A stretch of 64,000 bases of DNA from Limisphaerales bacterium (GCA_050250555.1 JBFWOK010000004.1:17526-81525); one strand, 5' to 3'; counted from the first letter of the stretch, positions 11,992 to 28,751 are shown. A program made the numbers and translations. The notes: a model not told the origin generated them from the sequence alone.

Positions 11992-12301
11992 GAAGAAAGG
12001 GGGGAAATGGTCCCGACGAAAATGCCGATTCCGGGGGCCTTGTCAAAGTCGCAAGTCCTCCCCAAAACCCCGCGTAAGAAACCACGAAGCGCACGAAGAG
12101 CACGAAGGGAGAGGCGGAAGCGAGTCCCTGATCAGGATTGACCTGTAGCGGATTGCCGAGGCCGGAACGAATCATGCTTCCTTCGTGTCCTTCGTGCCTT
12201 CGTGGTGGGATCGCTTTCTCCCAGGCGCCCCTATCCGGAGATCAGGGTCCTCCAAAGGGGGGTGGCGCATCGGCCCGCGTGATGGCACGGTGGCGGGCTC
12301 T

Positions 12302-14284
12302 ATGAGGTTTTCGAGGATTGGGATGTTCGGAGTGCTGACGCTGGCCTGGCTCGCCCTGCCCTGGGTTTCAAGAGCCGCGACCGTCACCGGGTTCAGTCCG
12401 GCGGCCGCCGGTCCAGGCACCGAGGTCAACGTCTTTGGAACGGGCCTCCAGAACACGTTCTTCGTCTACTTCGGTTCCACCGAGGCGTCGGGCGATATCC
12501 TCTCCCGAAGCGCGAACAGCGTCGTCGCCAGGGTCCCCGCCAACGCGCTCACCGGTCAGATCTCCGTTTTCATCAACGGCGGCGGCTTCGCCACGAGTCT
12601 CGGAATCTTCGTCACCACCCCCCGGTTCAGTGAGTTCACCCCACTCACCGGCGGACCCGGCACGCTCGTGACCATTTCCGGCGAGAACTTCGGGACCGGC
12701 CAATTCGGCAGCCGCGGCAACGTCACCAGCGTCCTGTTCAACGGGCAACCCGCCCAGTTCGAGATCAGCGGGATCAACCAACTGCTCGCCCTGGTCCCCC
12801 CTAACGCCACCACCGGACCCATCACCCTCGCCAACGAAGCCGGCTCCACCAGTTCGTTCGTTCCGTTCAATGTCGCGCCCCTCATCACGTCGGTGACCCC
12901 GGCAAGTGGCCAGCCCGGCGAGGCCGTCACGATCGTCGGCTCCAACATCGGAACCGCCTCCCGGGTCGAGTTCGGCCTCGAACGCGCCGAATTCTCGGCC
13001 CTCTCCTCCTCCAATCTCGTCGTTCGCGTCCCCACCAACGCCGTCAATTCCCGCATCCAGATCACAACTCCCGCGGGCACCATCGCCACCGCGTCCCCGT
13101 TCGTCGTCCTCCCCCGCATCATCCAGTTCTCCCCAGCCTTCGGAAACACCGGCACCAATGTCGTCCTGAGCGGCGGCGGATTTCACGGCGTCACCGCCGT
13201 CGAGTTCAACGGCACCCGCGCGAGTTTCACGTTCCAGTCCCCCACCCAGGTCAGTTCGATCGTTCCCTCAGGCGCCTCCACCGGCCCCATCCGGATCGTC
13301 ACCACCAATGGAACCTTCACCTCGACCGCATTCTTCCACCTCCCCGCGCGCGTCACCACCTTCAACCCCGGCTCCGGCAAACGCGACGACGTCATCACCA
13401 TCGATGGCCAGAATCTCTCCGGAACAACCCGCGTCCTCCTGAACGGCGTCGACGCCGACTTCACCGTCGTCTCCCCAACCCGCCTCACCGCCGTCGTCCC
13501 CGCCAACGCCACCACCGGCCGGTTCACCGTCCTCACTCCCGCCGGCTCAGTCCTCAGTTCCGGCACCTTCAATGTCATCCCGGTTCTCGACGGGTTTGCC
13601 CCGGACCACGCCACCATCGGCACCCCCCTCACGCTCTCGGGAGCCGGCCTCACCAACATCGTCTGGGTCCGCCTCGGCGGTCTCGACATGAGTTTCACCG
13701 TGCTCAACCCCACCACCCTCCGCGCCATCGTTCCCCTCGACGCCTTCAGCGGCACGCTCCGCCTCCGCAATCTCAGCGGCGTCGAAGTCCAGGCTCCCGG
13801 CACCTTCGTCGTCGACGGCGCCCGGCCCATCCTCACGTCGTTCTCCCCAACCCAAGGCGCCCCCGGCACCGTCGTTCAGATCGGCGGAAACGGCCTCGCC
13901 ACCACTTCGCGAATCCAATTCAACGGCCGTGACGCCGTTTTCGCGTCCCCCACCCTCACCTCCGTCCAGGCCACCGTTCCCGCCGACGCAACCACCGGCC
14001 CCATCGCCATCACCACCCTCGACGGAATTGTCGTCAGCACTTCCGACTTCACGGTGCGAGTGCCCGAGGTCGCCCTCTCCATCGAACCAGGCATCGCCAG
14101 TGACGAAGTGGTCCTCCGCTGGGACGCGTCAGCGACCGGGTACGTCCTCCAAAGTTCTTCCCGACTGAGCCCGAATCCCACCTGGTCCAATGTTCCGGTC
14201 ACCCCGGTCACCGAGGGAAACAAGTTCCGGGTCACCCTCGTCATCGCCCCCGACGGCGCCACCTACTACCGGCTCCGAAAGTAG
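12302..14284 (+). CDS. IPT/TIG domain repeat surface protein
   Basis: Signal peptide, then about 7 divergent ~85-aa repeats of the form I(T/S)xFxPxxGxPGTxVxIxGxxLxxxxxVxFNGxxAxF...PxxAxTGxI. Confidence 0.8.
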   Translation: MRFSRIGMFGVLTLAWLALPWVSRAATVTGFSPAAAGPGTEVNVFGTGLQNTFFVYFGSTEASGDILSRSANSVVARVPANALTGQISVFINGGGFATSLGIFVTTPRFSEFTPLTGGPGTLVTISGENFGTGQFGSRGNVTSVLFNGQPAQFEISGINQLLALVPPNATTGPITLANEAGSTSSFVPFNVAPLITSVTPASGQPGEAVTIVGSNIGTASRVEFGLERAEFSALSSSNLVVRVPTNAVNSRIQITTPAGTIATASPFVVLPRIIQFSPAFGNTGTNVVLSGGGFHGVTAVEFNGTRASFTFQSPTQVSSIVPSGASTGPIRIVTTNGTFTSTAFFHLPARVTTFNPGSGKRDDVITIDGQNLSGTTRVLLNGVDADFTVVSPTRLTAVVPANATTGRFTVLTPAGSVLSSGTFNVIPVLDGFAPDHATIGTPLTLSGAGLTNIVWVRLGGLDMSFTVLNPTTLRAIVPLDAFSGTLRLRNLSGVEVQAPGTFVVDGARPILTSFSPTQGAPGTVVQIGGNGLATTSRIQFNGRDAVFASPTLTSVQATVPADATTGPIAITTLDGIVVSTSDFTVRVPEVALSIEPGIASDEVVLRWDASATGYVLQSSSRLSPNPTWSNVPVTPVTEGNKFRVTLVIAPDGATYYRLRK

Positions 14285-14298
14285 GATGGCGCGCGCAA

Positions 14299-14508
14299 CT
14301 AGCGACGCCCACCCGCGCGCAGGAGTATCAGCCCCACCGCCACCGCCGCGAAAAAGTCCGCGGCCACGATCAATGCCCGCAGGCGCGGCTCCAACGGCAC
14401 CATCACCGCCGTGACCACCCCGCCCAGGATGAGCAAGGCCGGAATCAGGACCACGTTCCATTTCACGGAGCGAAGGTAAATGACGCCTTCCCCCCTTTGG
14501 AAGACCAA
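14299..14508 (-). CDS. small hydrophobic protein (two predicted TM helices), function unknown
   Basis: VKWNVVLIPALLILGGVVTAVMVPLEPRLRALIVAADFFAAVAVGLILL. The call rests on composition only. The start is probably an internal GTG. Confidence 0.3.
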   Translation of the reverse strand: MVFQRGEGVIYLRSVKWNVVLIPALLILGGVVTAVMVPLEPRLRALIVAADFFAAVAVGLILLRAGGRR

Positions 14509-14550
14509 GCCCAGCCCCCATCAAATCCTCGGCCAACCCCTTCGCAGATC

Positions 14551-14586
14551 CGTCCCATCCGTCTCATTCGTCCCATCCGTCCCATT
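14551..14586 (+). repeat. 4 x 9-bp tandem repeat (cgtcccatc / cgtctcatt)
   Basis: Read directly. Intergenic, 62 nt upstream of the CRTAC1-like gene start. Confidence 0.85.
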
Positions 14587-14647
14587 CCCCACCCCCTCGC
14601 CATTGCCGGCTCGACCTCCCCCCTGAGTTCTCCGCAAGATTTCCCCC

Positions 14648-17600
14648 GTGCCCCCCAGAAGGTCCCATTCGGCGGTCTCCGTTGTCCTGTTCCTGTCTTT
14701 TCAAAGTAGTTCCTTGCTCGGCGCCTCCCGCCCAATCCCGGTGTCCCCATCTCCAACCGAGGGCTTCTCCGCGGTGCCTCCCTCCCAGACCGGAATCCAC
14801 TTCACCAACCGCCTTCCCCCTTCCCTCGCCACCCAGAACCAGAATCTCATGAACGGCTCCGGCGTCGCCGCCGGCGACTTCGACGGCGACGGCCGCTGCG
14901 ACCTCTATTTCTGCGCCATCAACGGAACCAACACCCTCTATCGAAATCTCGGCAACTGGCGCTTTGAGGAGGTCGCCCGGACCGCCGGCGTCACCGGAAG
15001 AAACTGGGCCTCCACCGGCGCCGTCTTCGCCGACCTCGACGGCGACGGCGACAACGATCTCCTGGTGTCCACGCTCGGCGCTGGAGTCCAGGGTTTCCGA
15101 AACCTCGGCCAAGGACGGTTCGAACTCGCGACCACCGAATCCGGCCTCGCATCCACGTCCGGCGCCACGTCCCTCGCCCTCGGTGATGTCGACGGGGACG
15201 GCGACCTCGACCTGTACGCCGTCAACTACGGCGCCGAGTCGGTCCTCCGCTCGGGAGGCCGCGCCGAGATCAAAAAGGTGAACGGCGAATGGGTCTTCAC
15301 CGGCCCCAACGCCCACCGACTGCGCTACCGGGACGGACAGGTCGAAGAGGTCGGCGAAGCCGGATTCCTCTACCTCAACGACGGAAAAGGGCGCTTCAAA
15401 GCCCTGCCCTGGAGTTCCCAGTACTTCACCGGCATCGATGGCCTGCCGAAACCTCCGCCCCTCGACTACGGCCTCGGCGCCCAAATGCGGGACGTCAATG
15501 GAGACGGCGCACCCGATCTCTACATCTGCAACGATTTTCAGATGCCCGACCGCCTCTGGATCAACGACGGCCGCGGCCGCTTCCGCGAAGCCCCCTTCCA
15601 GGCCCTCCGCAAGTTCCCGTTCTCATCCATGGGCGTCGACTTCGGAGACCTCGACCGCGACGGGCACCTCGACTTTTTCGCCGTGGAAATGGCCAGCCGC
15701 GAACAGGCGCGCGCCCAACGCCAGGTTTCCGGTCTCACCCCCTCGCCCAACATCCCCGGAAGGTTCGACGCGCGCCCCCAGGTCGGACGCAACACACTGT
15801 TCCGCTCCAACGGCGACGGGTCGTGGTCCGAAATCGCCGAATTCTCCGGCCTCGCCGCCACCGATTGGTCCTGGCAACCCGTCTTCCTCGACGTCGATCT
15901 GGACGGCTTCGAGGACGTCCTTGTCGCCAACGGAATGATGTTCGACACCCAGGACCGCGACACACTCGCCCGAATTCAGTCGTTCGGCCGCCAGGCACCC
16001 ACCAACGCCCGTACCAACCTCCTTCTCTACCCCCCGTTCAACTCACCCAACGTCGCCTTCCGAAACCTCGGCGCCTTCCAATTCCAGGACGCATCGACCC
16101 GTTGGCACTTCGATTCCCCCAGCGTCTCCCAGGGCGTCGCTCTCGCCGACCTCGACGACGACGGGGACGCCGATGTGATCATCAATTGCCTCAACGACCC
16201 GCCCCTTCTCTACCGCAATGAAGGCTCCGCCCCCCGATTGGCCGTCCGCCTCCGCGGCACCGCTCCGAACACGTTCGGCATCGGCGCCCAGATCCGCGTC
16301 GAAGGCGGTCCCGTCCCCCAATTCCAGGAAATGATCGCCGGCGGCCGATACTTGTCCGGGGACGATCCGTTCCGATCCTTCGCCTGCGGCACCGCCACTC
16401 AACTCACGGTCCGCGTCACCTGGCGCTCCGGCCGCACCACCGTCGTGACCAATGCCGCGCCCAACACCCTCCTCACCCTCTCCGAAAACCCGGAGGCACC
16501 CGTCGAACCAAGACCGTCGACCCAGCCCAAACCCGACCTGCCCCGCTTCGTCGACGCCTCCCCCACCCTTCGTCATCAACATCACGAAGTGTTGTTCGAC
16601 GACTTCGCCCGCCAACCCCTCCTCCATCGCCAACTCAGCGCCCTCGGTCCGGGCCTCGCCTGGACGGACCTCGACCTCGATGGCCGCGACGAACTCGTCA
16701 TCGGAACGGGACGTGGCGGCAAGCTCGGCGCGCGACGATTCTCCACGGACGGCACCGCTTCGGACATTCCCACGGATTGGATCGCCCCAGGAGACGTGAC
16801 CGGGATCACCGGCTGGCGGACTCGGGAAGGCCGTCCCGCGCTGCTCGCCGCCGTTTCGGCGTACGAAGAGTCGTCCCCGAGGAACGGTGAGTTGGTCGAA
16901 GTCACGCTCGATCCCGCCGGGCAACGGCTTCAAGTCAGCCCCGCCCTTCAGTTCAATCCCGGAACCGGAACAACGACGATCCCCGCCTACCCAGGCCCGC
17001 TGGCGGCCGCCGATTTCGACGGGGACGGCGATCTCGATCTCTTCATCGGATCCAGGGTGATCCCCGGATCCTACCCGCGGGCCACGCCCTCCCTCCTCCT
17101 GCGCCGCGACAACAATAGCAACAACACCACCACCACGTGGACCCCGGACCCGAAAGCGGCGGCCCTCCTCGAACGAGCCGGAATGGTCTCCGCCGCGGTC
17201 TGGAGCGATCTCGAAAACGACGGTTTTCCGGAACTGATCCTCGCGTGCGAGTGGGGGCCCCTCAGGATCCTCCGGAATCAGCAAGGCAAGTTCACGAACT
17301 GGAACCCCCAGATCGCACCGGAGCTTCCCGGGGCGGCGCCGCGCCTGCTGTCCGAACTCACAGGATGGTGGAACGTCATCACCGCCGGGGATTTCAACAA
17401 CGATGGTCGCCTCGACCTCGTCGCCGCCAACTGGGGTCTCAACACCGGTTATCGGGCGACACCGCTCCAACCCCTCCGGATCCACTTCGCCCGACTGAGC
17501 AGCCCGACCGGCGAGGATCTCATCGAGTCCTACTTCGCCGCCGACTCCGGAAAAGAGGTGCCGCGAAGGAGCTTGAACGCTCTCGGCCGGGCGTTCCCTT

Positions 17601-18364
17601 TTCTGGCCGGACGTTTCCCCACGCACCGGGCCTACGGGAATGCGGGAATCCAGGACATCCTTTCGGCCCTTCCTTTTCCCCCCGCCACGGTCGCCGCCAC
17701 CACGCTCGCCAGCACGTTGTTCCTCAACACTCCGACCGGTTGGACAGCCGTCCCCCTGCCGGCGGAAGCCCAATACGCTCCCGCGTTCGGAATAAGCGTC
17801 ATGGACCTGGACTCCGACGGAGACCTGGACCTGTTCCTGGCCCAAAACTTCTTCGGCACACGAATCGAATGGCCCCGATGCGACGCGGGTCGCGGTCTCT
17901 TTCTGAGCAACGACGGCACGGGCAGGTTCGTTCCACTGACTTCATCGGAGTCCGGTCTCGTCATCCTCGGAGAACAACGCGGCGCCGCTGTCGCCGACTT
18001 CAACAACGACGGCAAACCCGACCTCGCCGTGGCCCAGAATGGCGCGCCAACAACCCTGTGGAAGCACTCGACCGACCAACCGCAACTCCGCATCCGACTG
18101 ACTGGCCCCGCCGGCAACCCCGACGGCTTCGGAACCACGCTCCGTCCCCGATTCGGCACGAACGACGGGCCGATCCACGAAATCCGCGCCTCCACGGGCT
18201 ACTGGTCCAAGGATTCGGCCACTCTCTTCCTTCCCGGAACCCCCCGCCCCACGGAACTACTTGTCCGCTGGCCCGGCGGCCAACTCCAGACCGTCGCCGT
18301 ACCACCCACCGGCGACCCGATCGTCATCGCCTCGCCAAACCCGAATCCGGCCGAACGCCAATAA
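14648..18364 (+). CDS. FG-GAP/VCBS repeat protein with two ASPIC/UnbV-like modules (CRTAC1 family)
   Basis: Many GDFDGDGxxDLY / DLDGDGDxDL / DFNNDGxxDL repeats. RxxGxxPNxFGIGAQIRV and GYWSxDS motifs are typical of the ASPIC/UnbV C-terminal domains. Confidence 0.85.
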   Translation: MPPRRSHSAVSVVLFLSFQSSSLLGASRPIPVSPSPTEGFSAVPPSQTGIHFTNRLPPSLATQNQNLMNGSGVAAGDFDGDGRCDLYFCAINGTNTLYRNLGNWRFEEVARTAGVTGRNWASTGAVFADLDGDGDNDLLVSTLGAGVQGFRNLGQGRFELATTESGLASTSGATSLALGDVDGDGDLDLYAVNYGAESVLRSGGRAEIKKVNGEWVFTGPNAHRLRYRDGQVEEVGEAGFLYLNDGKGRFKALPWSSQYFTGIDGLPKPPPLDYGLGAQMRDVNGDGAPDLYICNDFQMPDRLWINDGRGRFREAPFQALRKFPFSSMGVDFGDLDRDGHLDFFAVEMASREQARAQRQVSGLTPSPNIPGRFDARPQVGRNTLFRSNGDGSWSEIAEFSGLAATDWSWQPVFLDVDLDGFEDVLVANGMMFDTQDRDTLARIQSFGRQAPTNARTNLLLYPPFNSPNVAFRNLGAFQFQDASTRWHFDSPSVSQGVALADLDDDGDADVIINCLNDPPLLYRNEGSAPRLAVRLRGTAPNTFGIGAQIRVEGGPVPQFQEMIAGGRYLSGDDPFRSFACGTATQLTVRVTWRSGRTTVVTNAAPNTLLTLSENPEAPVEPRPSTQPKPDLPRFVDASPTLRHQHHEVLFDDFARQPLLHRQLSALGPGLAWTDLDLDGRDELVIGTGRGGKLGARRFSTDGTASDIPTDWIAPGDVTGITGWRTREGRPALLAAVSAYEESSPRNGELVEVTLDPAGQRLQVSPALQFNPGTGTTTIPAYPGPLAAADFDGDGDLDLFIGSRVIPGSYPRATPSLLLRRDNNSNNTTTTWTPDPKAAALLERAGMVSAAVWSDLENDGFPELILACEWGPLRILRNQQGKFTNWNPQIAPELPGAAPRLLSELTGWWNVITAGDFNNDGRLDLVAANWGLNTGYRATPLQPLRIHFARLSSPTGEDLIESYFAADSGKEVPRRSLNALGRAFPFLAGRFPTHRAYGNAGIQDILSALPFPPATVAATTLASTLFLNTPTGWTAVPLPAEAQYAPAFGISVMDLDSDGDLDLFLAQNFFGTRIEWPRCDAGRGLFLSNDGTGRFVPLTSSESGLVILGEQRGAAVADFNNDGKPDLAVAQNGAPTTLWKHSTDQPQLRIRLTGPAGNPDGFGTTLRPRFGTNDGPIHEIRASTGYWSKDSATLFLPGTPRPTELLVRWPGGQLQTVAVPPTGDPIVIASPNPNPAERQ

Positions 18365-18432
18365 CCGAATCGACCTCGATTCGATGCCCGGACCCCGTTC
18401 TCCCTCATTGCCCAAGAACTGTATTTCACCGC

Positions 18433-20922
18433 GTGAATGATTTATTTCATGCCGTGAACCCGATCCGACCGCGTTGGTTCGTCCGGAACCTGGAATCCGC
18501 CCGCAAGGTCCTGCCCGTGGCCCTCCCGCCGCATCCCCATCGCCGCAGCCGTGCCGCCAACGGACTCCGCCTGCTCGTCCTCCTTCCCCTCCTGCTCGCC
18601 GGCGCTCCACCCGCTCCCGCCGCCGCCGACCAGAACTTCCTCGGCCAACCCAACACCGCCCGCGCCCACCCGGCCGACACACCCACCGCGACCACTCCCC
18701 GAACCCGCCGGATCCTGTACAACCTCGACGGCGATTCCTGCATGACCCTCCGGGCCGGACGCACCGGACCCGGCCCGATCACCGCCGCCGATCTCACCAA
18801 CCTCGTCGCCGAAATCACCCGGCCCGGCAGCCAACTCGACACCGTTCTGGTCTGCGTCAACGCCCAGGTGATGTACTACCCCACCGCCGTGGGCACCCTT
18901 CGCGGCACCCGTTCCACCCCCGAGGAACGCGCCCGCTGGTCCTCCCACGAGCGCCAGCGCTTCGCCAATCTCGACGCCTTCTTCGCCCAGGGACTCGATC
19001 CCTACGCCGTTCTCTTCGCCGAAGCCCGGCGCTGCGGACTCGAGACTCTCCTCACGTTCCGCATGAACGACGCCCACGGGAATGATTTTCTCCGAACCGC
19101 GTTCTGGGAACGCCATCCCGGGTTCCGCCTCGGCAAAGGCGCCCTCGATTTCGCCCATGACGCGGTCCGCGACCATGTGTTCGAACTCATCCGGGAGACG
19201 GTCCGCCGCTACGATGTCGACGGCCTCGAACTGGACTTCCTGCGGTTCCCCACGTTCTTCAAGGCCGGCGACCCCGCGGAGAACAAAGCGAGAATGAACG
19301 GTCTCGTCCGCCGCGTCCGGGAGTTCCTCGACGCCGAAAGCGCCCGCCGCGGACGCCCGCTGGTGCTCGGAGTGCGCGCGCCCTCCGATTACGGTCGGAC
19401 CCGCCCGACCTACGCCCATTCCGTCGCCGCACCGAGAGCCTGCGATGTCGCCGAATGGACCCGAAGCGGCTGGATCGATTTCCTCACTGTCAGCGACTGG
19501 CTCTTCAACGGCGACACCCTCGACCTCGCCGACTGGCGCCGTCATGTGCCCGGAATCCCGATCTACGCCGCCATCCAGCCCGAAACCCGGCCCTCGTCGA
19601 ATCCGACCCGTTGCGAGCATTGCCTGGGCGCGGACGGATATCGCCTCGCCGCCCGCGAACGCTGGGCGGACGGCGCCGATGGCATCTACCTGTTCAATTT
19701 CTTCACCGCCCGCGAGTGGCCCGAACCCGCCGAACCGCCCTTCGAGGTGCTCTCCGAGATCGGCGAACCCCGCGGGATCACCGAACGCATCCCCATCCTC
19801 GGCTGGCACAGCATCCCCGAACGCGAGTTGTCCCTGGAACGGTTCCAGGAACTCGCCGGCATGGGCCTGACCCTCAGCCTCATGCACTACAGCCCCGAAG
19901 GAAACCTGAAGGCCCTCGACCTCGCCGCCCGGACCGGGGTCCGCCTTTTCATCGGCGATTCCCGATTCCGCCAACCCGGCCCCGAGCTGGACGAAGCCGT
20001 CCGCACCTACCGCCAACACCCCGCGCTCGCCGGGTACACACTCAAGGACGAACCCAGCCTCGCCGAGTTTCCAACCCTCGCCGCCGCCCGCGATGCGCTC
20101 GCCGCCGCCGACCCGGACCCGGCCCACGGGAGCTACGTGAACCTCTTTCCCACTTACGCCAGCCCCGCCCAACTCGGCTGCCCCACCTACCCGGAACACC
20201 TGCGCCGCTTCGTCCTCGAATTCCGCCCTCAGGTCCTGAGCTTCGATCACTACCCGATCCTCGACGGCGGTGCCGTCCGCCCCGATTACTACCAGAACCT
20301 CGAGTGGATCCGCCGCGCCGCCCTCGACGCCGGCGTGCCCTTCTGGGCCTTCGCCCTCGCCTGCCCCCACAAGCCCTATCCCACCCCCACCGCCGGTCAT
20401 GTCCGCCTCCAGGCCTGGAGCAACTTCGCCTACGGCGCCCGCGCCCTGCAGTACTTCACCTACTGGACTCCCAACCCGGGAACCTGGGACTTCCACGACG
20501 CCCCCATCCGCCTCGACGGCTCCCGCAGCCCGACCTACGACCTGCTCCGCGCCTTCAACCGGGACGTCCAGGCCTGCGCCGACGTCCTCCTCCGCAGCCG
20601 CGTGACCGCCGTCTTCCACACCGAACCCCTCCCCGCCGGCACCACCGCCGCGGATGCCGCCTGCCCCTTCCAAACCATCGAAGGCGGACCGGCGCTCGTC
20701 GGACTGCATGTCCTCCCCGACGACCGCCGCTATGCCCTCGTCGTCAACCGTTCCCCCACCGAACCCGCCACGCTTCGACTCACGCTTCGCGATGAGGTCC
20801 GGCGCGTTTCCTGGGAGCATCCCGTCGCCGGGGCGCGCCTCCACGAATCGACGAACCGCGTCGCCACCCTCGCCCTCGAACCCGGCGCCGCCGCCCTCCT
20901 CCGCATCCATCCCGCACCATGA
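18433..20922 (+). CDS. secreted two-domain glycoside-hydrolase-like protein (TIM-barrel-like modules)
   Basis: This is the real gene inside track ORF 17137..20922; the 5' part of that ORF overlaps the CRTAC1-like gene out of frame. Signal peptide RLLVLLPLLLAGAPPAPAAA. FRMNDAHGNDF...VDGLELDFLRFP resembles GH-like family 10 proteins. The C-terminal half (YTLKDEPS...FDHYPI) resembles GH42-type barrels. Candidate starts are GTG at 18433, 18454 or 18517. Confidence 0.55.
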   Translation: MNDLFHAVNPIRPRWFVRNLESARKVLPVALPPHPHRRSRAANGLRLLVLLPLLLAGAPPAPAAADQNFLGQPNTARAHPADTPTATTPRTRRILYNLDGDSCMTLRAGRTGPGPITAADLTNLVAEITRPGSQLDTVLVCVNAQVMYYPTAVGTLRGTRSTPEERARWSSHERQRFANLDAFFAQGLDPYAVLFAEARRCGLETLLTFRMNDAHGNDFLRTAFWERHPGFRLGKGALDFAHDAVRDHVFELIRETVRRYDVDGLELDFLRFPTFFKAGDPAENKARMNGLVRRVREFLDAESARRGRPLVLGVRAPSDYGRTRPTYAHSVAAPRACDVAEWTRSGWIDFLTVSDWLFNGDTLDLADWRRHVPGIPIYAAIQPETRPSSNPTRCEHCLGADGYRLAARERWADGADGIYLFNFFTAREWPEPAEPPFEVLSEIGEPRGITERIPILGWHSIPERELSLERFQELAGMGLTLSLMHYSPEGNLKALDLAARTGVRLFIGDSRFRQPGPELDEAVRTYRQHPALAGYTLKDEPSLAEFPTLAAARDALAAADPDPAHGSYVNLFPTYASPAQLGCPTYPEHLRRFVLEFRPQVLSFDHYPILDGGAVRPDYYQNLEWIRRAALDAGVPFWAFALACPHKPYPTPTAGHVRLQAWSNFAYGARALQYFTYWTPNPGTWDFHDAPIRLDGSRSPTYDLLRAFNRDVQACADVLLRSRVTAVFHTEPLPAGTTAADAACPFQTIEGGPALVGLHVLPDDRRYALVVNRSPTEPATLRLTLRDEVRRVSWEHPVAGARLHESTNRVATLALEPGAAALLRIHPAP

Positions 20923-20955
20923 ACAACAACCCGCATAGGTCGCCGCACCGTCGAC
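20867..20955. repeat. left copy of an ~89-bp direct repeat flanking the vapBC cassette
   Basis: ccctcgccctcgaacccggcgccgccgccctcctccgcatccatcccgcaccatgaacaacaaccc... The first 64 nt are identical to 21842-21905. There are 5 mismatches overall. Confidence 0.9.
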
Positions 20956-21037
20956 GGGGACCGTTTTGAACGCGCCCGGCATCAACATAGGTGTCGACCA
21001 AAACGCACAAGGATGCTTTGATGCGTTTGGTGATTTG

Positions 21038-21322
21038 ATGAGAACTACAATCGATTTGCCGGAGGATCTTCTGAGGCAGGCCAAGGCTCGGGCCGCTCTC
21101 GACGGGAAGAAGTTGAAGGACCTCCTCACCGTGTTCATTCAAGAAGGTCTTCGTAGACGCGATTCGAGCCGAACAGACGCACGCGGGAGATCGCTCGGAC
21201 GCCGATCTCCGCCGCCCGTGCTCGTTCCACGCCGCGGAGTCCCCATCCCGGCGGTTTCGCCCGACGCGCTCCGCCAACTGGAGGACCAGGAAGACGAAGC
21301 CCGACATGCGCGACCTGCTTGA
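21038..21322 (+). CDS. vapB: VapB-type antitoxin
   Basis: MRTTIDLPEDLLRQAKARAALDGKKLKDLLTVFIQEGL is a typical antitoxin N-terminus. The gene overlaps the downstream PIN gene by 17 nt. Confidence 0.65.
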   Translation: MRTTIDLPEDLLRQAKARAALDGKKLKDLLTVFIQEGLRRRDSSRTDARGRSLGRRSPPPVLVPRRGVPIPAVSPDALRQLEDQEDEARHARPA

Positions 21323-21734
21323 CTCCAGTGTGTGGCTCCCGCTCTCGGCCCCGGATCATGTCCACTACTCACGCGCCAGAGCGTACTGGACCAAAGAAGC
21401 GGACGAGGAACTCGCGTTTTGTCGAGTCACAGCGTTGGCTCTGCTCCGCCACCTGACCCATCCGCGAATCATGGGCGCGGCAGCTCTTGATGGCGCGGCC
21501 TCATGGACAGCGCTCGGGAAGTGGCTGGCCACGCCGCGCATCCATCTCATTCCGGAGCCGGCTGGAATCGACGAGTGGTTGCGTCGATGGAGCGTCCACC
21601 TGGATCTTCGAGGCGGCGCATGGACGGACGCGTACCTCGCCGCTTTCGCCATGGCCTCCGATTGCCGCCTGGTCGCATTCGACGCGGGATACAGCCGCTA
21701 CCCCGGACTTCGCTTCCTGCATCTCCAGCCATAG
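21306..21734 (+). CDS. vapC: PIN-domain toxin VapC
   Basis: LLDSSVWL (first acidic residue), FCRVTALALLRHLT, WTDAYLAAFA and LVAFDAGY are canonical PIN motifs. Confidence 0.8.
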   Translation: MRDLLDSSVWLPLSAPDHVHYSRARAYWTKEADEELAFCRVTALALLRHLTHPRIMGAAALDGAASWTALGKWLATPRIHLIPEPAGIDEWLRRWSVHLDLRGGAWTDAYLAAFAMASDCRLVAFDAGYSRYPGLRFLHLQP

Positions 21735-21841
21735 TTCAACCTCTGGTTCCGATTGAAATGGAAGATCGGCTCAATTCTGAGCCGGCAGCCTCACAATGGT
21801 CGCTTGTGGATGTTTTATACCCATTGTCTTTCACCGCACCG

Positions 21842-21930
21842 CCCTCGCCCTCGAACCCGGCGCCGCCGCCCTCCTCCGCATCCATCCCGCACCATGAACA
21901 ACAACCCACACGGGCCACCGCACCGTCGAC
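21842..21930. repeat. right copy of the ~89-bp direct repeat flanking the vapBC cassette
   Basis: See 20867-20955. This copy carries the functional ATG (21894) of the downstream gene, plus a dead copy of the upstream gene's 3' end (..ALEPGAAALLRIHPAP*). Confidence 0.9.
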
Positions 21931-23399
21931 CAGGACCCTTTGCCTCGGCGCTCGGCCTGTTCCTCTTCCTCCTGACACCCGTCCTCGAACCGCCCTCGTC
22001 CGCCCTTGCCGCGCCTCCCCCACTCCCCGCGCCCCGGATGACCTACCTCGACAACGGCAAGGTCCGCATCGGTATGGACCTCGCCCTCGGCGGCGCCGTC
22101 ACTTTCCTCTCCAGCCCCGACCACGCCGGCAACCTCATCAACAGCGCCGATCTCGGCCGCCAGATCCAGATGTCCCACTACTCCGGCCCCTGGCCCTTCG
22201 TCGCCGGAGACAAACAACCCGCCCCCCAATGGGCCGGCCTCGGCTGGAATCCGATCCAAACCGGCGACTGCCACCACAATCCCTCAACGGTCACCGACCA
22301 CCGCAACGACGGCCGCGAGCTCTACATCCGTTGCGTCCCCATGCAGTGGCCCCACGACAACGTCCCCGGCGACTGCGTCTTCGAAACCTGGACCACCCTC
22401 GACGGCCCCGTCGCCCGCCTGCGCTTCCGCTGCACCAACCGGCGCGCCGACACCACCCGCTACCGGCCCTGCCCCCAGGAACTCCCCGCCGTCTACACCA
22501 TCTCCCGCCTCTCCCGCCTTATGGCCTACACCGGCGACCAACCGTTCACCGGCGCCCCCCTCACCCACGTCCGCAACGACTGGAAACAACCCTGGCCCTG
22601 GACCCGCTTCACCGCCACCGAACGCTGGGCCGCCCTCGTCGATGACTCCGATTTCGGCCTCGGTGTCTTCAAGGACGACGGCGGTGAGTTCCACGGCGGC
22701 ATCCATGGCGAAGGCCGGTCCGACGACCCGAAACACGGCTCCACCGCCTACGTCGCCCCCATCCACCGCGAGAACTTCGATCACAACATCGTCTACGAAC
22801 ACCGCACCGACCTCATGGTCGGCCGCCTCGACGACATCCGACACCGGTTCAACGCCCTCGCCACCCGCACGCCCCCGGACTGGCGCTTCGACACCGACCG
22901 CCAGCACTGGACCCTCGTCGGGGCCACCGACGACGGCTTCCCCTGGAAGGGCGAGTGGCGCCTCCGCTTCGACACCCGGAAACCCCGCCTCGAAGGCCCC
23001 ACCCAATGCTGGCGCGCCGAACACGGCCCGATCCTCGAAATCGAGGCCGCCCGCCACGGTCGCGCCATCCAAGCCCGCGTGTTCTGGAAACGCCTCGACG
23101 ATGACGGGTTCGACGCCTCGAAGAGCCTCCCGTTCGAACTCCCCGCCGACGGCACCTTCCACACGCTCCGGGTGGACCTCGCCGTTTCCCCCGAATACCG
23201 CGGGCTCCTCACCGGCCTCGCCCTCGAACCCGTCGCCGATCATCCCCGGGGCCGGGCGGACGGCGAACTGATCCTCCGACGCATCACCCTGCGCGAACGC
23301 GATGCCCCGGCGCCCGCCGCGGCCCCGCGCGCGGCTACGCAGCCCCAGCCCCAGCCCCAGCCCCAGCTCACCCTACCCCTTCCGGCCCCCGGGGCATGA
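21894..23399 (+). CDS. secreted hypothetical protein with a C-terminal (PQ)n tail
   Basis: ATG at 21894 and signal peptide FASALGLFLFLLTPVLEP. The ORF is long, with normal composition. No domain was recognised. Confidence 0.7.
   Translation: MNNNPHGPPHRRPGPFASALGLFLFLLTPVLEPPSSALAAPPPLPAPRMTYLDNGKVRIGMDLALGGAVTFLSSPDHAGNLINSADLGRQIQMSHYSGPWPFVAGDKQPAPQWAGLGWNPIQTGDCHHNPSTVTDHRNDGRELYIRCVPMQWPHDNVPGDCVFETWTTLDGPVARLRFRCTNRRADTTRYRPCPQELPAVYTISRLSRLMAYTGDQPFTGAPLTHVRNDWKQPWPWTRFTATERWAALVDDSDFGLGVFKDDGGEFHGGIHGEGRSDDPKHGSTAYVAPIHRENFDHNIVYEHRTDLMVGRLDDIRHRFNALATRTPPDWRFDTDRQHWTLVGATDDGFPWKGEWRLRFDTRKPRLEGPTQCWRAEHGPILEIEAARHGRAIQARVFWKRLDDDGFDASKSLPFELPADGTFHTLRVDLAVSPEYRGLLTGLALEPVADHPRGRADGELILRRITLRERDAPAPAAAPRAATQPQPQPQPQLTLPLPAPGA
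23340..23369 (+). repeat. hexanucleotide repeat (cagccc) x4, plus one imperfect unit
   Basis: Encodes QPQPQPQPQL at the C-terminus of the preceding CDS. Confidence 0.9.
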
Positions 23400-23780
23400 C
23401 AGGCCAGCACTTACGAGGTGTCACGCCAGCTCCCACCCCGGTCCACGGGGCGGCCATGAGGTGTGGAATACGCACCTCCGTACCCCGTTGTTCATTTTCT
23501 GGCCCGAGAATCCCAAAGGGATTTCGCCCCCAAGCCTAGGGTTGAATCGCACAGCGGGCTTACCCTGAGTTACGCATCATCCGAGCCACCAACACCAACG
23601 GTGTTGCGTCCGACGGCCATAATCCCGATGGAGTTGCAGGAACTCCGAGGCCTATTCGACGGATCCGTCCTGGCCCGAATAGAGGTACCCAGTCCCATTG
23701 TCTCCTGCTATCGCACCTCCAAATCAACCACCATGCCCATGTCGGAAGTCGCATTTCCGAGGCATGTCACTCGAATCGAT

Positions 23781-24263
23781 TTACCGCCGTTCCTCGGGGA
23801 AATCCAAGACTTCCAGACCCTCGGCCCGAGCGATCTTCGACTGCCGGTGGTCGAAGGTGAGAAACTGTTCGACGCCAAGGTGAAGGGCCGCCGCCACGTG
23901 AAGCACATCGCTCGCTCGAGCGCCGAGACGTTGGGTATGCTCTGCGGACAATTGAAGTGATCGAACGACGACCGCTTCCACATCCATCGCCACGCTTGTC
24001 AGCCCTCGCCGTCGCAGCAATTGGGCAAGACGAGCAACAGATGCGTCCATCTCTTCCTGGATGCGCTTACGTTCGCGTGCTGGCCGGACCTGGGACTCGT
24101 GGAAGGCGCGCTGTCGCAGGGCGTTCTCGACCTCGAGCTGATGAACCCATAGGTAAGGAAGAATGGGACGGCCAGCGTGCCGGTACGCGCCGATCGCCGC
24201 CTCGCTGTCGGCCTCACCCACGACCAACCGTAAAATGAAACTACTGTCGGCGTATGCGGTCAT
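23781..24263 (-). CDS. vapC: PIN-domain toxin (VapC family)
   Basis: MTAYADSSFILRLV..., SDVLHVAAALHLG, FLTFDHRQ. The ATG overlaps the antitoxin stop (ATGA). Confidence 0.8.
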   Translation of the reverse strand: MTAYADSSFILRLVVGEADSEAAIGAYRHAGRPILPYLWVHQLEVENALRQRAFHESQVRPARERKRIQEEMDASVARLAQLLRRRGLTSVAMDVEAVVVRSLQLSAEHTQRLGARASDVLHVAAALHLGVEQFLTFDHRQSKIARAEGLEVLDFPEERR

Positions 24264-24502
24264 CGTCGCGATTCGTCCAGGAGACGGGCAGCGCTGACGT
24301 TGCTGCAAGGCGCGGAAAGCGTCGCATCGAGGATCTCGTCGATGACCCGATCACGGCTCGGGTCGGATTCGACGGCCTCGGCAGCGCGAAGGACCCAGAG
24401 GGGCTCCTTGGCATCGGTGATTACGACCGTCTCACCCGCGCGGGTCCACTGCTTCACCTGACCAGGATCGCGCAGGAGGCGGCGAAGCGGGATCGTCTTC
24501 AT
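24260..24502 (-). CDS. Phd/YefM-like antitoxin
   Basis: MKTIPLRRLLRDPGQVKQWTRAGETVVITDAKEPLWVLR. Lies immediately upstream of the PIN gene and is translationally coupled to it. Confidence 0.6.
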   Translation of the reverse strand: MKTIPLRRLLRDPGQVKQWTRAGETVVITDAKEPLWVLRAAEAVESDPSRDRVIDEILDATLSAPCSNVSAARLLDESRR

Positions 24503-24612
24503 GCGTCAGACGCTACCGGCTGACGTTTGGACGGTCAACGTACCGGAAGAACCGGCCGGAAGAACCGGCTTGCGGCCCACCTGATTTCGGAGCGAGGGTT
24601 CGTCCGACGTGG

Positions 24613-24689
24613 GCGGCCGTAGCTCAATTGGCTAGAGCTTCTGACTTCGGATCAGAAGGTTGCAGGTTCGAGCCCTGCCGGCCGTACCA
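24613..24689 (+). tRNA. tRNA-Arg (anticodon UCG), with CCA encoded
   Basis: Cloverleaf folded by hand. Acceptor gcggccg/cggccgt (G1-U72 wobble). D arm gctc-aattggcta-gagc. Anticodon arm tctga-ctTCGga-tcaga. Variable loop aggtt. T arm gcagg-ttcgagc-cctgc. Discriminator a, then cca. Confidence 0.9.
24667..24689 (+). repeat. proximal att-like repeat (tRNA-Arg 3' end)
   Basis: ttcgagccctgccggccgtacca matches 28752-28774 at 22 of 23 positions. Confidence 0.9.
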
Positions 24690-24890
24690 TTCAGGATCAA
24701 CGTGTTACACCGATTCCTCAAGGGCCCATGGAGGAACGCTTCGTCAAAACTTGGCCACTTTCTGCGGGAATCGTGCGGCGCTGCCGGCTCTTGCCGCCCT
24801 GCATCCCAGGTCGGTTTGTCCCTTGACCGATAGGGGCGCCGGAATCCCGAAGAGGAATCCAACATCTAGACCCCGAACTCCCGAGGTTTC

Positions 24891-25424
24891 ATGCACGCCC
24901 TCAAGTCCGCAGCCGTTGCTGCACTCCTCGTTCTAGCCTTTCCCACCGGAGTCCATGCCCAAGACCCCGTGGCCAACGGCCTCGTGGCGTATTACCCGTT
25001 CAACGGGAGCGCGAACGACGAGAGCGGGAAGGGCAACCACGGCGCGATCATTGGGTACGACTGGAAATTCTCCTTCGACCGATTTGGCGGTGCGAACAGC
25101 CTTTACCTCAACACGACCTCGAACCCCACTTCGACTTTTGACGGAACCTACGTCGTCGTCCCCAGAAGTGCCTCCCTCGATTTCACCGCCGACTTCACTC
25201 TGAGCGTCTGGGTTAATCTGCCGAGCGGACTCATTTACCACGTCCACAACCTGATTTCCAACGGCCGCGATGACAGTGGAGCCAACCTTCGAATCGTGTC
25301 CCATGCGGCAACCGACGGACGAGATTACTTTCAGTATATCCACTCGCGCCGCCGGCAACACTCCAAGGCATTCCGCAAAATGCGGTGCCGGGATCCAAGG
25401 TCTGGCCCAGTTGACGTGACGTGA
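24891..25424 (+). pseudogene. LamG/concanavalin-A-like lectin domain protein, apparently truncated
   Basis: Signal peptide, then LVAYYPFNGSANDESGKGNHG...SLDFTADFTLSVWV (typical LamG N-terminal half). The sequence then degenerates (..HSRRRQHSKAFRKMRCRD*). About 420 nt of noncoding sequence follows. Confidence 0.45.
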
Positions 25425-25844
25425 CGCGACGCTCGGGTGTCTTTCCGCCCGCTCCCGTCCCTTCAACTTCTCCATTCAAGACCCCAAGTCCGAGGAGTCC
25501 CGCGGGCAAGGGTTCCCTTTTCGTGCCCCGACCGTCCCGGCACCTCCCAACCCCCAACCTCCAGCGTAGAACGACGGGCCCCACCGTGGGGCGCTCCTCA
25601 CGTGCAAGCCAGCATTCGCTTCCAGGTCATCGGGGCGATCCGATCCTTGCCGAGGTGCGGTCGGCAATTCACCGATTCCACGCAGCAACCACCAAGTTTC
25701 CAGGGCGTTTAACGTTTTTGACCTTCCGGCTCCGTAAGTTGCACGAGCATAGCGCATTGGAAGTATTTGACGCCACGCGATTCATCTGATGCCGCGCCGC
25801 AGTTCGGCATTGCTGCAGCTCTGCAATTCAGTAATGCTGCCGGG

Positions 25845-26066
25845 GTGAGCACTGTGGTCCAGATCAACCAGCGTGGGACGTTCACGATCCCCAAGGAACT
25901 TCGGGAGAAGTATGGCTTGGATCGTCAGGCGATTCTCGAGGAAACGCCCGACGGTCTCATCCTGCGTCCGGCAGCCACCTACCCGGTCGAGATCTATTCC
26001 GCTGAGCGTTTGGCCGAGTTCCAGAGGATGAACGAGGACGGTCTCCAAGGATTCGCCCTCAAGTGA
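25845..26066 (+). CDS. AbrB/MazE/SpoVT-family antitoxin
   Basis: VQINQRGTFTIPKELREKYGL is a swapped-hairpin motif. The stop overlaps the GTG of the PIN gene (GTGA). The GTG start at 25845 is tentative. Confidence 0.65.
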   Translation: MSTVVQINQRGTFTIPKELREKYGLDRQAILEETPDGLILRPAATYPVEIYSAERLAEFQRMNEDGLQGFALK

Positions 26067-26491
26067 AGGTCTTCCTCGACGCCAACGTGTTGTTCTCCGC
26101 CGCGTTGCCAGTAAGTCGGATGGGCGAATTTGTACGCTGCATGAGGAAGCATGCCGAACTGGCGAGCAGCCCCGCCGCCGTGGATGAAGCCCTGCGGAAT
26201 GTGGAACGAAAGCTCACCGACGCCACGGTGGTGGCCCGCAATCTTCAGGAACTACTGAAGGGCGTCAGCCTTTCCTCATCGGTGGTCGAATTGCCGGGCG
26301 TTGTACTGGTGGAAAAAGACCAACACATTTTGGGAGCCGCGGTGGCCTCCGCATGCTCGCACCTCCTGACCGGGGACCAGCGTCATTTCCAACACCTCTT
26401 CGGAAACGTCGTGGGTGGCGTACGGTTAGTCCACGCTGCCCAGCTGGCTGAGGAACTGGGGTTCCAACGGTCGCAACCCAACAACGGCTGA
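26063..26491 (+). CDS. PIN-domain toxin
   Basis: MKVFLDANVLFSAAL..., DQHILGAAVASACSHLLTGDQRHF. Confidence 0.75.
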   Translation: MKVFLDANVLFSAALPVSRMGEFVRCMRKHAELASSPAAVDEALRNVERKLTDATVVARNLQELLKGVSLSSSVVELPGVVLVEKDQHILGAAVASACSHLLTGDQRHFQHLFGNVVGGVRLVHAAQLAEELGFQRSQPNNG

Positions 26492-26721
26492 AACGCCCAC
26501 GACCATCCTCGGTCACCGGGCGGGAGCAAGCCGCGGTTCTGACTCATCATGCACCGGGCTTCTCAATTCCCGATGTAAGCTTCCATTGAAAACGCCCTGC
26601 GATCCGGGGCGACAGTCTGCGAGGAATCCAAGGATACGACAAACCTTCGGGCTCCGAGCCCCTTCAGATCGACCGGCCGAATGGGCGAGGAGTCGTTTGT
26701 TTGTTCGCACCTCGCCTGAGC

Positions 26722-27171
26722 TCAAACGCGCCCCGCCCGCATCGGAACTACAAAGGCACTTGGGATTCCTGTGTCCAACGTTGCGAGCTCAGACTGGTGC
26801 GCCTTCGCGAGAGCCAGCAGGTGCGCGTCCGTCGCTTGACTGGCACTTCGGCACCACTCGGGCCAGACCGTCGCCCATTGGTCGTCGGGCAGGAATTGGT
26901 GAACGGACCCCAGACTCGTCAGCATACCCGCCAGGGTTGTCCCCGCATCCGCGGGAGTGACCTGTCACTCGCACGGGACGCGCCCAATCCGTCTCGGTCG
27001 GTCCGCCTCGGGCTGCGCCCGCCTCCGCAGGTATTCCGAGACCGACAACTTCTGGCGCCGTGCCAACGGTGAACAACTCGGACGCCGGGCGATCAAACCC
27101 AATTCTTCGTCCCAGTGCTCGGCGAATCCTTGAACCACCGACAGCGACCACGACCACCCGATAGCCCCCAA
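26722..27171 (-). pseudogene. degenerate toxin-antitoxin locus: an RHH-like antitoxin ORF and a VapC C-terminal fragment in the same frame, separated by a TGA
   Basis: ..ARRQKLSVSEYLRRRAQ.. is like an RHH helix. It ends at the TGA at 26965-26967. The same frame continues as QVTPADAG...FLPDDQWATVWPEW...TDAHLLALAKAHQSELATLDTG, which is the C-terminal half of a PIN domain. The N-terminal acidic motif is absent. Confidence 0.4.
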
Positions 27172-27318
27172 TCGGCTTGCAGCGGCTCCCAGCCCCCTTC
27201 GCGCCCATCAAGCTCCTCGTGATTTCGGTTCTTCGGAGAATTGGGACCGCATCCGAAGCGGCATTCAAACATGGCACCAGATCTTTCGCGGCCGAAATGG
27301 TAAAAGGGCCCGGCCTCG

Positions 27319-28620
27319 TTAGCCCTTCAGTCCTTTGCTGGGCCATTGTCGGTCCGGCTGGAGGGTGGCGCTGTTATTCCAGCCTTGCACCATCTCATGC
27401 CACTTGGTGTAGGGCTGGATGGCCACCGAGTTGCTGAAGTGGCCCCAGAATCTCTTCAAACCCAAGTAGATGATGTTCTCCCCTTCAAGCCCGGCAGCGG
27501 TGCCGTCCCACCCGTCGTTCTTGATGAAACCGCCGTCACCGGGCACCCAGTCCTTATCGTCGCCGGTTGTACCGGAGACCTGCTTTGCCCCGCCTCCGCC
27601 CTCGATGGTGACCTTGGAAGCCGCGGCGCAACCAATCCTGTACTCCTCCGGGTGCTCGTTGATGTCCCGGTGAGCCTCGTCCCATTCCACGCCCTCCTTC
27701 TTCCAGAACTTCCCGCGCTCCTTGTCGAGCTCCCAATACTTGGGGTTCATCTTGAAGTCGTGGCGTCCCCCGGTGAAGGAGTACTGCTTCTTTCCGGCGA
27801 AATCGACCACGCCTCGGCGGGCCTCCATGTGGCGCATGAGGTGGTACTCCGCCGTACTCCCATTGTCGCCTTGAAGCCGAAAGATCCTCGGCGAGTGGAA
27901 CAAAGATGTGAACACTTCGAGACTGAGGTCCTTCGTTCGGTCGAGATGGGGGTAGCTGTAGATATCCCCCGCCTTGATGAGAAATTCGTGGAAGCTCGGG
28001 AGATCGGAATTGGGCGGCATCTGGACCTTCCGCTGAACCACTCCTTGGGACGCGCCCCCGGCCAGGACCTGATGCAGTCGGTCCTCAAGGCCTTCGGTTG
28101 AGGCGGATTCCCCGCCATCGTGGGTGTTCGTGTCCGAGATGTCCTGGGCGGCCTGTTGTCCCAATCGATCCGCCTCGGCCTCGAGTGCAGGATCGTCGTC
28201 GATGGCGCCGCCCATGGCCTGGGCTGTGGCGCGAACCCGGCCGGAGGCTTGCTGGGTTACGTGGGCCAGTTCGTGGCCCAGCAGCGCCCGACCGCTCACC
28301 GTGTGGGGCGCATACTCGCCCGGGGCGAAATGAACGTCGACACCCCGCGTGTACGCGCGGGCTCCGATGCTCGCGGCGCGCTGGTCCTGATGGACCCGAA
28401 CGGCGGAGAAATCCCACCCGAAGGAATGCTCCATTCCGGCCCGGACCCCTTCCGGCAGGCAAGCTCCCGGGGAGGACGGGGGTTGGGTCGCCAGAGATTG
28501 CCACAATGCGTTGACGGGGTGTCGTGCGGGGTCCAACTCGCCACGGGACGCCTGAGCACGTCCGACCGCCGAGGCGGTTACCGCTGCCTTGGACCGCGGT
28601 GCATCGAAGGCCTGGCTCAT
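27319..28620 (-). CDS. DUF4157 (zincin-like) N-terminal domain polymorphic-toxin-type protein with an unassigned C-terminal domain
   Basis: FGWDFSAVRVHQDQRAASIGARAYTRGVDVHFAPGEYAPHTVSGRALLGHELAHVTQQ is the DUF4157 signature and includes HExxH. This is followed by ALEAEADRLG and a ~250-aa Lys/Trp-rich C-terminal domain (..EEYRIGCAAASKV..KRFWGHFS..). Confidence 0.8.
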   Translation of the reverse strand: MSQAFDAPRSKAAVTASAVGRAQASRGELDPARHPVNALWQSLATQPPSSPGACLPEGVRAGMEHSFGWDFSAVRVHQDQRAASIGARAYTRGVDVHFAPGEYAPHTVSGRALLGHELAHVTQQASGRVRATAQAMGGAIDDDPALEAEADRLGQQAAQDISDTNTHDGGESASTEGLEDRLHQVLAGGASQGVVQRKVQMPPNSDLPSFHEFLIKAGDIYSYPHLDRTKDLSLEVFTSLFHSPRIFRLQGDNGSTAEYHLMRHMEARRGVVDFAGKKQYSFTGGRHDFKMNPKYWELDKERGKFWKKEGVEWDEAHRDINEHPEEYRIGCAAASKVTIEGGGGAKQVSGTTGDDKDWVPGDGGFIKNDGWDGTAAGLEGENIIYLGLKRFWGHFSNSVAIQPYTKWHEMVQGWNNSATLQPDRQWPSKGLKG

Positions 28621-28751
28621 AAATGTGAGCAAAGCGATTCCGGCGGGAGAAGCAAGGGCGGGAACAGACCCGCAAGGGTCAACGGGGGCACTTCAAAACG
28701 AATCGAGACTTCTCGTTGCGCTGCCGCGCCGCGACCCAAAGTCCCAATTCA

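Follow-up and report, generated by a model that had tools for sequence, protein, structure and literature searches.

The 64,000-nucleotide stretch of DNA analysed here (the window) comes from a Limisphaerales bacterium (GCA_050250555.1, JBFWOK010000004.1:17526-81525) and carries, exactly where the stop codon of one gene overlaps the start codon of the next, a small cassette that encodes a VapBC toxin-antitoxin pair and is bounded by a long direct repeat. The explanation that fits best, and that we hold to be probable, if by no means certain, is insertion with long target duplication of the vapBC cassette within an operon. On this explanation, a cassette of ~0.9 kb, comprising the operator region, vapB and vapC, would have landed on the 4-nt ATGA overlap in the same orientation as both genes, and ~92 nt of the target would have been duplicated, leaving one copy on each side. 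The left copy would complete the upstream gene, and the right copy would supply the ribosome-binding context and start of the downstream gene; with one repeat copy for each neighbour, the insertion would be harmless to both. The proteins of the cassette are an ordinary VapBC pair, and it is the mode of insertion alone that is notable.

A direct repeat across a gene junction

The repeat finder returned a pair of 103-nt segments with 91% identity at an offset of 975 nt (Table 1). Beyond the exact block of 66 nt, a weaker similarity continues for ~30 nt (to ~20962), with 8 mismatches in 34 nt, and then ends. An exact repeat of 66 nt inside 1 kb far exceeds chance, and in a repeat scan of the 64-kb window this pair was the sole one of its kind around a gene. 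An earlier note, made from the sequence of the window, had reported direct repeats at 20867-20955 and 21842-21930 with five mismatches, which is confirmed: 84 of the 89 positions are identical, the mismatches lying at 20933, 20936, 20937, 20940 and 20942. The note had also described the first 64 nt as identical; identical they are, but the exact block is 66 nt long. Its remark that such a duplication lies far beyond the target-site duplications of insertion sequences, and that both neighbours are kept intact, likewise stands.

Translation reproduced the coding geometry that the note had described. Both repeat copies contain ccATGAac, in which the upstream gene's stop codon TGA (20920-20922) and the ATG at 20919 overlap. 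With the left copy the upstream open reading frame (ORF) is complete, ending in TLALEPGAAALLRIHPAP before the stop; this copy also opens a 16-codon stub of the downstream gene, MNNNPHRSPHRRRGPF followed by a stop. The right copy holds a dead tail of the upstream gene, ALALEPGAAALLRIHPAP and its stop, and it is here, at 21894, that the downstream gene has its live start (MNNNPHGPPHRRPGPFASALG). Homologues of the upstream protein at loci L006, L007 and L011 share with it the C-terminal motif ..L.(L/V)EPG.A..L(R/Q)(I/L). directly before the stop, these homologues, from three other genomes, terminating in SLEPGSAAWLQIE, LELEPGAGAFLRLH and LDAGAGMFLRLQ. Since the homologues end where the left copy ends, the left copy is the native terminus and the right copy its dead duplicate.

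Table 1. Features of the insertion locus (positions in the window)
Feature	Position	Strand	Remarks
Upstream gene, two-part glycoside-hydrolase-like protein	18433..20922	+	829 aa on NCBI contig
Left repeat copy	20864..20966	+	exact core 20867-20932, diverged part 20933-~20962
Dead stub of downstream gene	20919..20969	+	16 codons, MNNNPHRSPHRRRGPF and stop; enters cassette DNA at GGACC(N)TTT microhomology 20957-20966
Cassette core shared with another genome	20957..21771	+	promoter/operator region, vapB, vapC, 37 nt of 3' sequence
Inverted repeat AAACGCA-N14-TGCGTTT	21001..21028	+	10 nt 5' of vapB ATG; conserved in L071 and L129
vapB antitoxin	21038..21322	+	94 aa, N-terminus MRTTIDLPEDLL
vapC PIN-domain ribonuclease toxin	21306..21734	+	142 aa; TIGR00028 and PF01850
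3' tail of insert	21772..21841	+	70 nt; not in L071-type cassette
Right repeat copy	21839..21941	+	exact core 21842-21907
Dead duplicate of upstream-gene tail and stop codon	21842..21896	+	within right repeat copy
Downstream gene, secreted protein of unknown family	21894..23399	+	501 aa; live start in right repeat copy

The cassette and its relatives

The ~0.9 kb between the repeat copies encodes vapB and vapC only. For the toxin, the score with NCBIfam TIGR00028 ('TA system VapC family ribonuclease toxin') is 94.2 bits, the cut-off being 73.6, and that with the PIN domain PF01850 is 37.8 bits (cut-off 23.6). Of its acidic residues, D6 and D126 do not vary among 31 homologues and D108 hardly does, and the closest solved structure is VapC43 of Mycobacterium tuberculosis (7vwo, E=1.4e-4). 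The antitoxin gene is co-oriented with vapC and lies directly upstream, the vapC start overlapping the vapB end by 17 nt. VapB matches PF09957 over residues 1-25 with 18 bits, under the cut-off of 23.4, and homologues of it are encoded upstream of a VapC homologue at no fewer than 16 other loci, a lower bound. With a PIN toxin above both thresholds and an overlapping antitoxin gene upstream of it, the insert can be classified, as far as sequence features go, as a predicted type II toxin-antitoxin system of the VapBC family. The palindrome that precedes vapB is a plausible candidate for the VapB operator. The insert's GC content is 0.61, as against 0.69-0.70 in both flanks. A search with PADLOC defence models gave no match, and no sigma70 promoter or terminator was found inside the insert on the plus strand. 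Because the cassette is oriented as its neighbours are and has no terminator on that strand, the downstream gene can presumably still be transcribed through it.

The core of the cassette was found again in a Verrucomicrobiota metagenome-assembled genome (MAG), on contig JBBQIU010000508.1 (L071, positions 1033-1847), where 815 nt align to the window without gaps at 91.2% DNA identity. L071 contains no homologue of either flanking gene; the best relatives of the flanking genes reach only 59-81% identity at the protein level, compared with 91.2% at the DNA level for the cassette core. A third copy, L129 (Ga0105046_10001248), is 96% identical to L071 and has yet another left flank. A copy with 91% identity within unrelated flanks of another genome thus marks the cassette, from these alignments, as apparently mobile and horizontally acquired. 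The DNA common to L071 and L129 reaches ~55 nt farther to the left than that of the window, and the 70-nt 3' tail of the insert has no match in any compared locus. As the shared DNA stops at a different point in each copy and the tail of the window is unmatched, the cassette is without fixed termini. The sequence GGACC(N)TTT stands at the cassette's left end in both L071 and L129, and the chromosomal target has it as well (21932-21941); the left joint therefore looks like a microhomology of the kind used in illegitimate joining.

Besides the cassette, positions 1-3668 of L071 contain another antitoxin-PIN pair (~2400-3061) and, on the minus strand at 414-929, an IS200/RAYT-like gene. Six intergenic copies of a 32-nt motif that ends in GACCCCATTG are present in L071 and none in the window, and the contig end, 3509-3668, is a perfect 62-nt tandem array. 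L071 looks like a small toxin-antitoxin cassette array with a repeat family as separators. The motif TTGACCCCATTG, which recurs around the L071 cassette, was considered as a recombination site and dropped, since it is peculiar to that genome and the window lacks it. In L129, the vapB ATG is changed to ATT (2230-2240), and the contig stops within vapC and overlaps contig L127 by 23 nt; these features suggest that the metagenome holds strain variants or that this copy is decaying.

Flanking repeats at other vapBC loci

Loci with relatives of this VapC were collected from representative genomes and JGI metagenomes, and 1.2 kb on each side was compared. Flanking direct repeats of 42-253 nt were present at 6 of the 107 distinct related vapBC loci with enough flank. 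At L074 (Terriglobia) the repeat is 66 nt long, exact in its first half and with five mismatches in its second, and takes in both the 3' end of an upstream acetyltransferase-like gene and the start codon (ATG) of the peptidase gene that follows, which is the geometry seen in the window. At L217 (Luteolibacter) a repeat of ~230 nt (87%) hugs a cassette of 760 nt and spans a convergent intergenic region and the 3' end of a neighbouring gene, and at L189 (Verrucomicrobiales) a 42-nt repeat is conserved at 95%. As a control, 315 random 700-nt segments from 63 unrelated loci were taken, five of which were positive. All five proved to be internal protein repeats or conserved termini of paralogues, so the control overestimates the background for the junction-duplication geometry. 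The enrichment, computed as 6/111 against 5/315, has a Fisher p=0.04. Positive loci made up 4 of 13 in Verrucomicrobiota and 2 of 65 in other phyla (p=0.006). The repeats at different loci are unrelated in sequence and variable in length, which rules out a common attachment site.

How the cassette may have been inserted

Insertion with long target duplication would proceed without an element-encoded recombinase. Most likely, a linear or circular fragment was joined illegitimately at microhomologies, at least one of the two joints presumably having been made in this way. The joints would have been staggered by ~92 nt on the target, either within a single duplex that was broken and then filled in or on two sister chromosomes; with staggered joints, the interval between them is duplicated automatically. 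Such insertions would survive preferentially where the duplication spares both neighbours. For the VapBC family it is established that VapC, a PIN RNase, outlasts VapB, and by analogy cells that lose the present pair may be penalised, which would favour its retention.

Several observations weigh against this explanation. The uninterrupted junction, which the earlier note had suggested seeking in relatives, was not found: among representative genomes of 185,579 species, the two flanking genes are adjacent in no relative. Homologues of the downstream protein (59-81% amino acid identity) occur in three Verrucomicrobiota MAGs, in none of which does the gene adjoin a homologue of the upstream gene. 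A 37-mer spanning the junction had no exact match in JGI metagenome contigs. Only three metagenome runs contain any of this DNA, two from landfill (X1 and X2) and one from sludge (X3); the latter contains a divergent relative (~93% identity, ~2x depth) and gave no coverage at the junction, and the contigs of X1 and X2 cannot display empty-site joins, the repeat core of 66 nt being longer than the k of 31 used in assembling them. No empty site having been found, the insertion is inferred and the state before it is reconstructed from the duplicate halves alone. Furthermore, microhomology can be read at just one of the two joints, and the enrichment of flanking repeats over the controls is modest. 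Three of the positive loci are ambiguous: the 187 nt at L071 are the 5' region of the IS200/RAYT-like gene plus a locally repeated motif, the 253 nt at L155 are the C-termini of two paralogous genes, and the 149 nt at L213 form part of a more complex repeat pattern. The concentration in Verrucomicrobiota was noticed post hoc. Finally, the mismatches between the repeat copies are unevenly spread (0/66 and then 8/34), contrary to what would be expected of a simple duplication made recently at the site. The switch across the repeat has p=1e-4; of the two dead halves, the tail in the right copy is unchanged over 52 nt and the stub in the left copy has 7 changes in 40 (p=0.002). Had they decayed in place, the two should have been affected equally, and the pattern therefore requires an extra recombination step.

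One alternative takes this pattern as its starting point. In it, a first insertion occurred at the same junction in a related strain, and the cassette entered the present genome by RecA-dependent recombination, either Campbell-style through the 66-nt block, as an excised circle of one repeat plus the cassette, or by replacement of a linear allele. An identical block of 66 nt suffices for RecA-type recombination, and the abrupt switch from 0/66 to 8/34 would fit a crossover within it. The N-termini of the downstream-gene homologues, in the fast-evolving signal-peptide region, are moreover highly divergent. However, neither a donor-type allele nor a second strain was seen, X1 and X2 each showing a single path with equal depths, and the first insertion and the cassettes at other targets would be left unexplained. 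Homology-driven arrival would account for the proximate event in this genome, for which it seems to us rather unlikely, and an original insertion with a long duplication would still have had to take place elsewhere. As a secondary step it is compatible with the main explanation and is likely: the insertion may already have been present in a related strain, and homologous recombination may have brought the present copy from there, with a crossover at the edge of the identical block, and the stub would then be the donor allele of the signal-peptide region.

It appears quite improbable that the repeats are older than the cassette, that is, that a small tandem duplication of the junction came first and the cassette was inserted by chance between its copies. 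For restriction-modification genes, a class of 'chance insertion between repeated sequences' does exist (PMC2853133), and the repeats flanking L155 and L071 are paralogue or repeat-family sequences. The repeat of the window, in contrast, is unique, and its halves complement each other exactly, as the dead and the live part of a single junction. A 92-nt duplication and a precise insertion at its join would amount to two rare events where one suffices, and at the left joint there is microhomology between cassette end and target.

A remnant of a site-specific integrative element is a further alternative. In this case the repeats would be attL and attR, and the integrase would have been lost or act in trans, as in CIME-like or tRNA-island-like elements. 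Integrase-mediated islands typically carry direct repeats, from tens to ~100 nt in length, by which the target gene is restored, a pattern listed as class b in PMC2853133. A tRNA-Arg gene and two other PIN modules do lie 2.7-4.5 kb downstream of the insert. On the other hand, no integrase or transposase was detected among the genes called or tested within ~10 kb (the genes of the NCBI contig and ten downstream ORFs), only 0.9 kb separates the repeats, and the repeat is not located at the tRNA gene. The genes called or tested encode a TIG-domain protein, an FG-GAP/ASPIC protein, the two flanking proteins, two further PIN modules, an eCIS-core/transglutaminase protein, an ECF sigma factor and a Ser/Thr kinase. 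Related cassettes, furthermore, lie in different targets, with unrelated repeats of variable length and differing boundaries. We regard this origin as very improbable. The earlier note had drawn the analogy with tRNA-targeting islands and had proposed movement by homology or by site-specific capture. The analogy and site-specific capture are contradicted by the differing targets, the unrelated repeats of 42-253 nt and the lack of constant ends, and homology could act only as a secondary spreading step. Its other statements on the cassette agree with our results: gene calls and domain searches found nothing besides vapBC in it and no recombinase in or near it, the 91%-identical copy in L071 speaks for mobility, and copies in different contexts exist (L071 and L129).

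Other kinds of mobile element were examined as well. No inverted repeats pair the ends of the cassette, and a search against Rfam returned tRNA only. An integron cassette was rejected because the 3' non-coding 111 nt fold no better than shuffled sequences (z=-0.93), there is no intI among the neighbours, and the window holds no repeated attC-like family. An insertion sequence, a transposon or a miniature inverted-repeat element (MITE) was rejected given the absence of terminal inverted repeats, a duplication of at least 66 nt and the variable cassette boundaries. Nor does the repeat look like a multi-copy sequence: the window, which is the part of the genome that was searched, holds two copies, and the metagenome graphs show two contexts.

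Integrity of the assembly

The region is present in both landfill runs, for which Logan unitigs (k=31) were used. In each run it is represented by four unitigs: a left flank running to 20896, the 66-nt core 20867-20932, a 969-nt cassette unitig 20903-21871 and a right flank starting at 21878. At a likeness of 97% or more, the unitigs of X1 and X2 showed no further branches. The depths of left flank, cassette and right flank are 8.99, 8.70 and 8.42 in X1, where the core has 23.3, and 7.49, 7.01 and 9.85 in X2, where the core has 20.3. The diverged ends of the two repeat copies fall in separate unitigs. A genuine 66-nt repeat whose borders have diverged must break a k=31 graph at exactly these points, which excludes contig joining as the source of the repeat. 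The equal depth of cassette and flanks indicates that the insert is fixed in both samples, with no measurable population of empty sites or free circles; heterogeneity in read depth or excision, for which the earlier note had proposed to look, is thus not seen. Additionally, NCBI MAG contig JBFWWF010000169.1 (GCA_050246335.1) has the same arrangement and, over the part compared, shows 100% identity with window 13894-25665.

An assembly artefact, which the earlier note had named as grounds for abandoning its claim, might be suspected (for instance a contig end that was mis-joined or duplicated) in a metagenome-assembled genome of which the NCBI contig spans window 12121-25665 only, but it is hardly credible with that contig, unitigs that in both runs break where a true 66-nt repeat must in a k=31 graph, a core at about twice the flank depth, no alternative branch, and the diverged copy ends in different unitigs. 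The contig is 13,545 bp long and the window 64 kb; the window is either a longer assembly of the same population or a set of contigs joined at 12121 and 25665. The core unitig has 2.6-2.8 times the flank depth and not 2.0, with the same sign in both runs. Since an empty site, a circle or amplification would also raise the depth of flank or cassette, which is not observed, we judge this excess to be sampling noise.

Flanking genes and other features of the window

The upstream protein matches Pfam GH42 and GHL10 weakly, below the cut-offs. In most relatives, residues ~50-430 and ~422-798 match separate stretches, and both modules fall in a single match (66% identity) in L006 alone. Two modules seem to have been fused in this protein.

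Two more PIN-type toxin-antitoxin pairs, at 23781-24502 (minus strand) and 25767-26491 (plus strand), flank the tRNA-Arg(TCG) gene at 24613-24689 (plus strand). One consists of a PIN gene and an upstream partner of 80 aa, and the other of a MazE/AbrB-like antitoxin and a PIN_3 toxin. The stretch that holds both, ~23450-27500, has a GC content of 0.57-0.64. Flanking direct repeats of at least 30 nt were found at neither pair. Farther downstream, an eCIS core domain (PF13699, 94 bits) occurs together with a protein-glutamine gamma-glutamyltransferase (TGL) domain in an ORF of 437 aa (27319-28632, minus strand). At 45733-46237, a segment of 241 nt is present in tandem (97% identity, spacing 264 nt), probably as a repeated protein domain.

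Comparison with known systems

The movement of chromosomal toxin-antitoxin genes has mostly been put down to transport on plasmids, phages, integrons or islands. The term 'insertion with long target duplication' comes from the Kobayashi laboratory, where it was coined for restriction-modification genes (PMC2853133). The process was first described by Nobusato et al. 2000 (Gene 259:99), as cited in PMC2853133, and was extended to Type I-IV systems in many phyla by Furuta, Abe and Kobayashi 2010 (NAR 38:2428, PMC2853133). In the restriction-modification insertions, the repeats are 46-423 bp long, variable, often placed over the 3' end of a neighbouring gene, and unaccompanied by any other mobile element (PMC2853133). 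Double-strand breakage by the cargo was suggested by these authors as the cause, the mechanism being left unsolved, and in the life cycle they proposed the repeats later permit amplification and release (PMC2853133). A review of 2014 credits such movement to some restriction-modification systems and not to toxin-antitoxin systems (PMC3874152), and our literature search retrieved no report of long target duplication for a toxin-antitoxin locus.

Measured by the criteria of Furuta et al. 2010, the insert in the window carries a complete addiction gene set, is shorter than 20 kb (~0.9 kb), has no mobility gene found in or beside it, and is flanked by a repeat that is longer than 30 bp (66 nt exact, ~92-103 nt in total at 91%) and that, in the window and the metagenome graphs, is not a multi-copy element. 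It shares with the restriction-modification insertions a small addiction unit without a recombinase, repeats of a unique target with variable length, and a deviating GC content. New in comparison with them are Verrucomicrobiota as host phylum and, as target, a 4-nt overlap of stop and start codon. Unlike the restriction-modification cargo, the toxin here is an RNase and not a DNA-cleaving enzyme, so that double-strand breakage by the cargo cannot be the cause. The restriction-modification cases were defined by comparison with a genome carrying the empty site, whereas the target here is reconstructed from the duplicate halves.

It is a tentative possibility, for which we would claim no more than a minority chance, that type II toxin-antitoxin cassettes share with restriction-modification genes a host-driven, recombinase-independent way of moving, in which they would insert with target duplications of great and variable length and survive preferentially at gene junctions whose two neighbours are spared by the duplication; in Verrucomicrobiota this seems to be especially frequent. 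If this is true, the process would rest on the host, through break repair, or on selection for addiction modules, and not on DNA cleavage by the cargo, and long flanking duplications could serve as a general marker of recent recombinase-free gene gain. The cassette repeats could then later serve excision, amplification or re-entry by homologous recombination. The case also illustrates how two translationally coupled genes can receive an insertion between them that is neutral to selection.

In its contents, the insert resembles known VapBC modules (TIGR00028, 'Mtu_PIN_fam', and VapC43, 7vwo) in the acidic residues of the PIN toxin, the overlapping antitoxin gene and the palindrome before the operon; its identity to characterised VapBC is low (E=1.4e-4 to VapC43). 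As in integrase islands with a surrogate target end, the repeats restore the interrupted gene and both neighbours are functional, but no integrase was found here, and there is no conserved att core, no fixed ends and no common target. A ParDE-like module of Microcystis aeruginosa PCC 7806 is likewise a toxin-antitoxin pair between long direct repeats for which no recombinase is mentioned (PMC7935541). Its repeats are identical over 152 bp, non-coding and contain an inverted repeat, and, unlike those of the window, they have not been read as a target duplication, with no link to the ends of neighbouring genes being reported (PMC7935541). The present finding is best filed as a new example of a known, mechanistically unsolved process, with a new kind of cargo and in a new host phylum.

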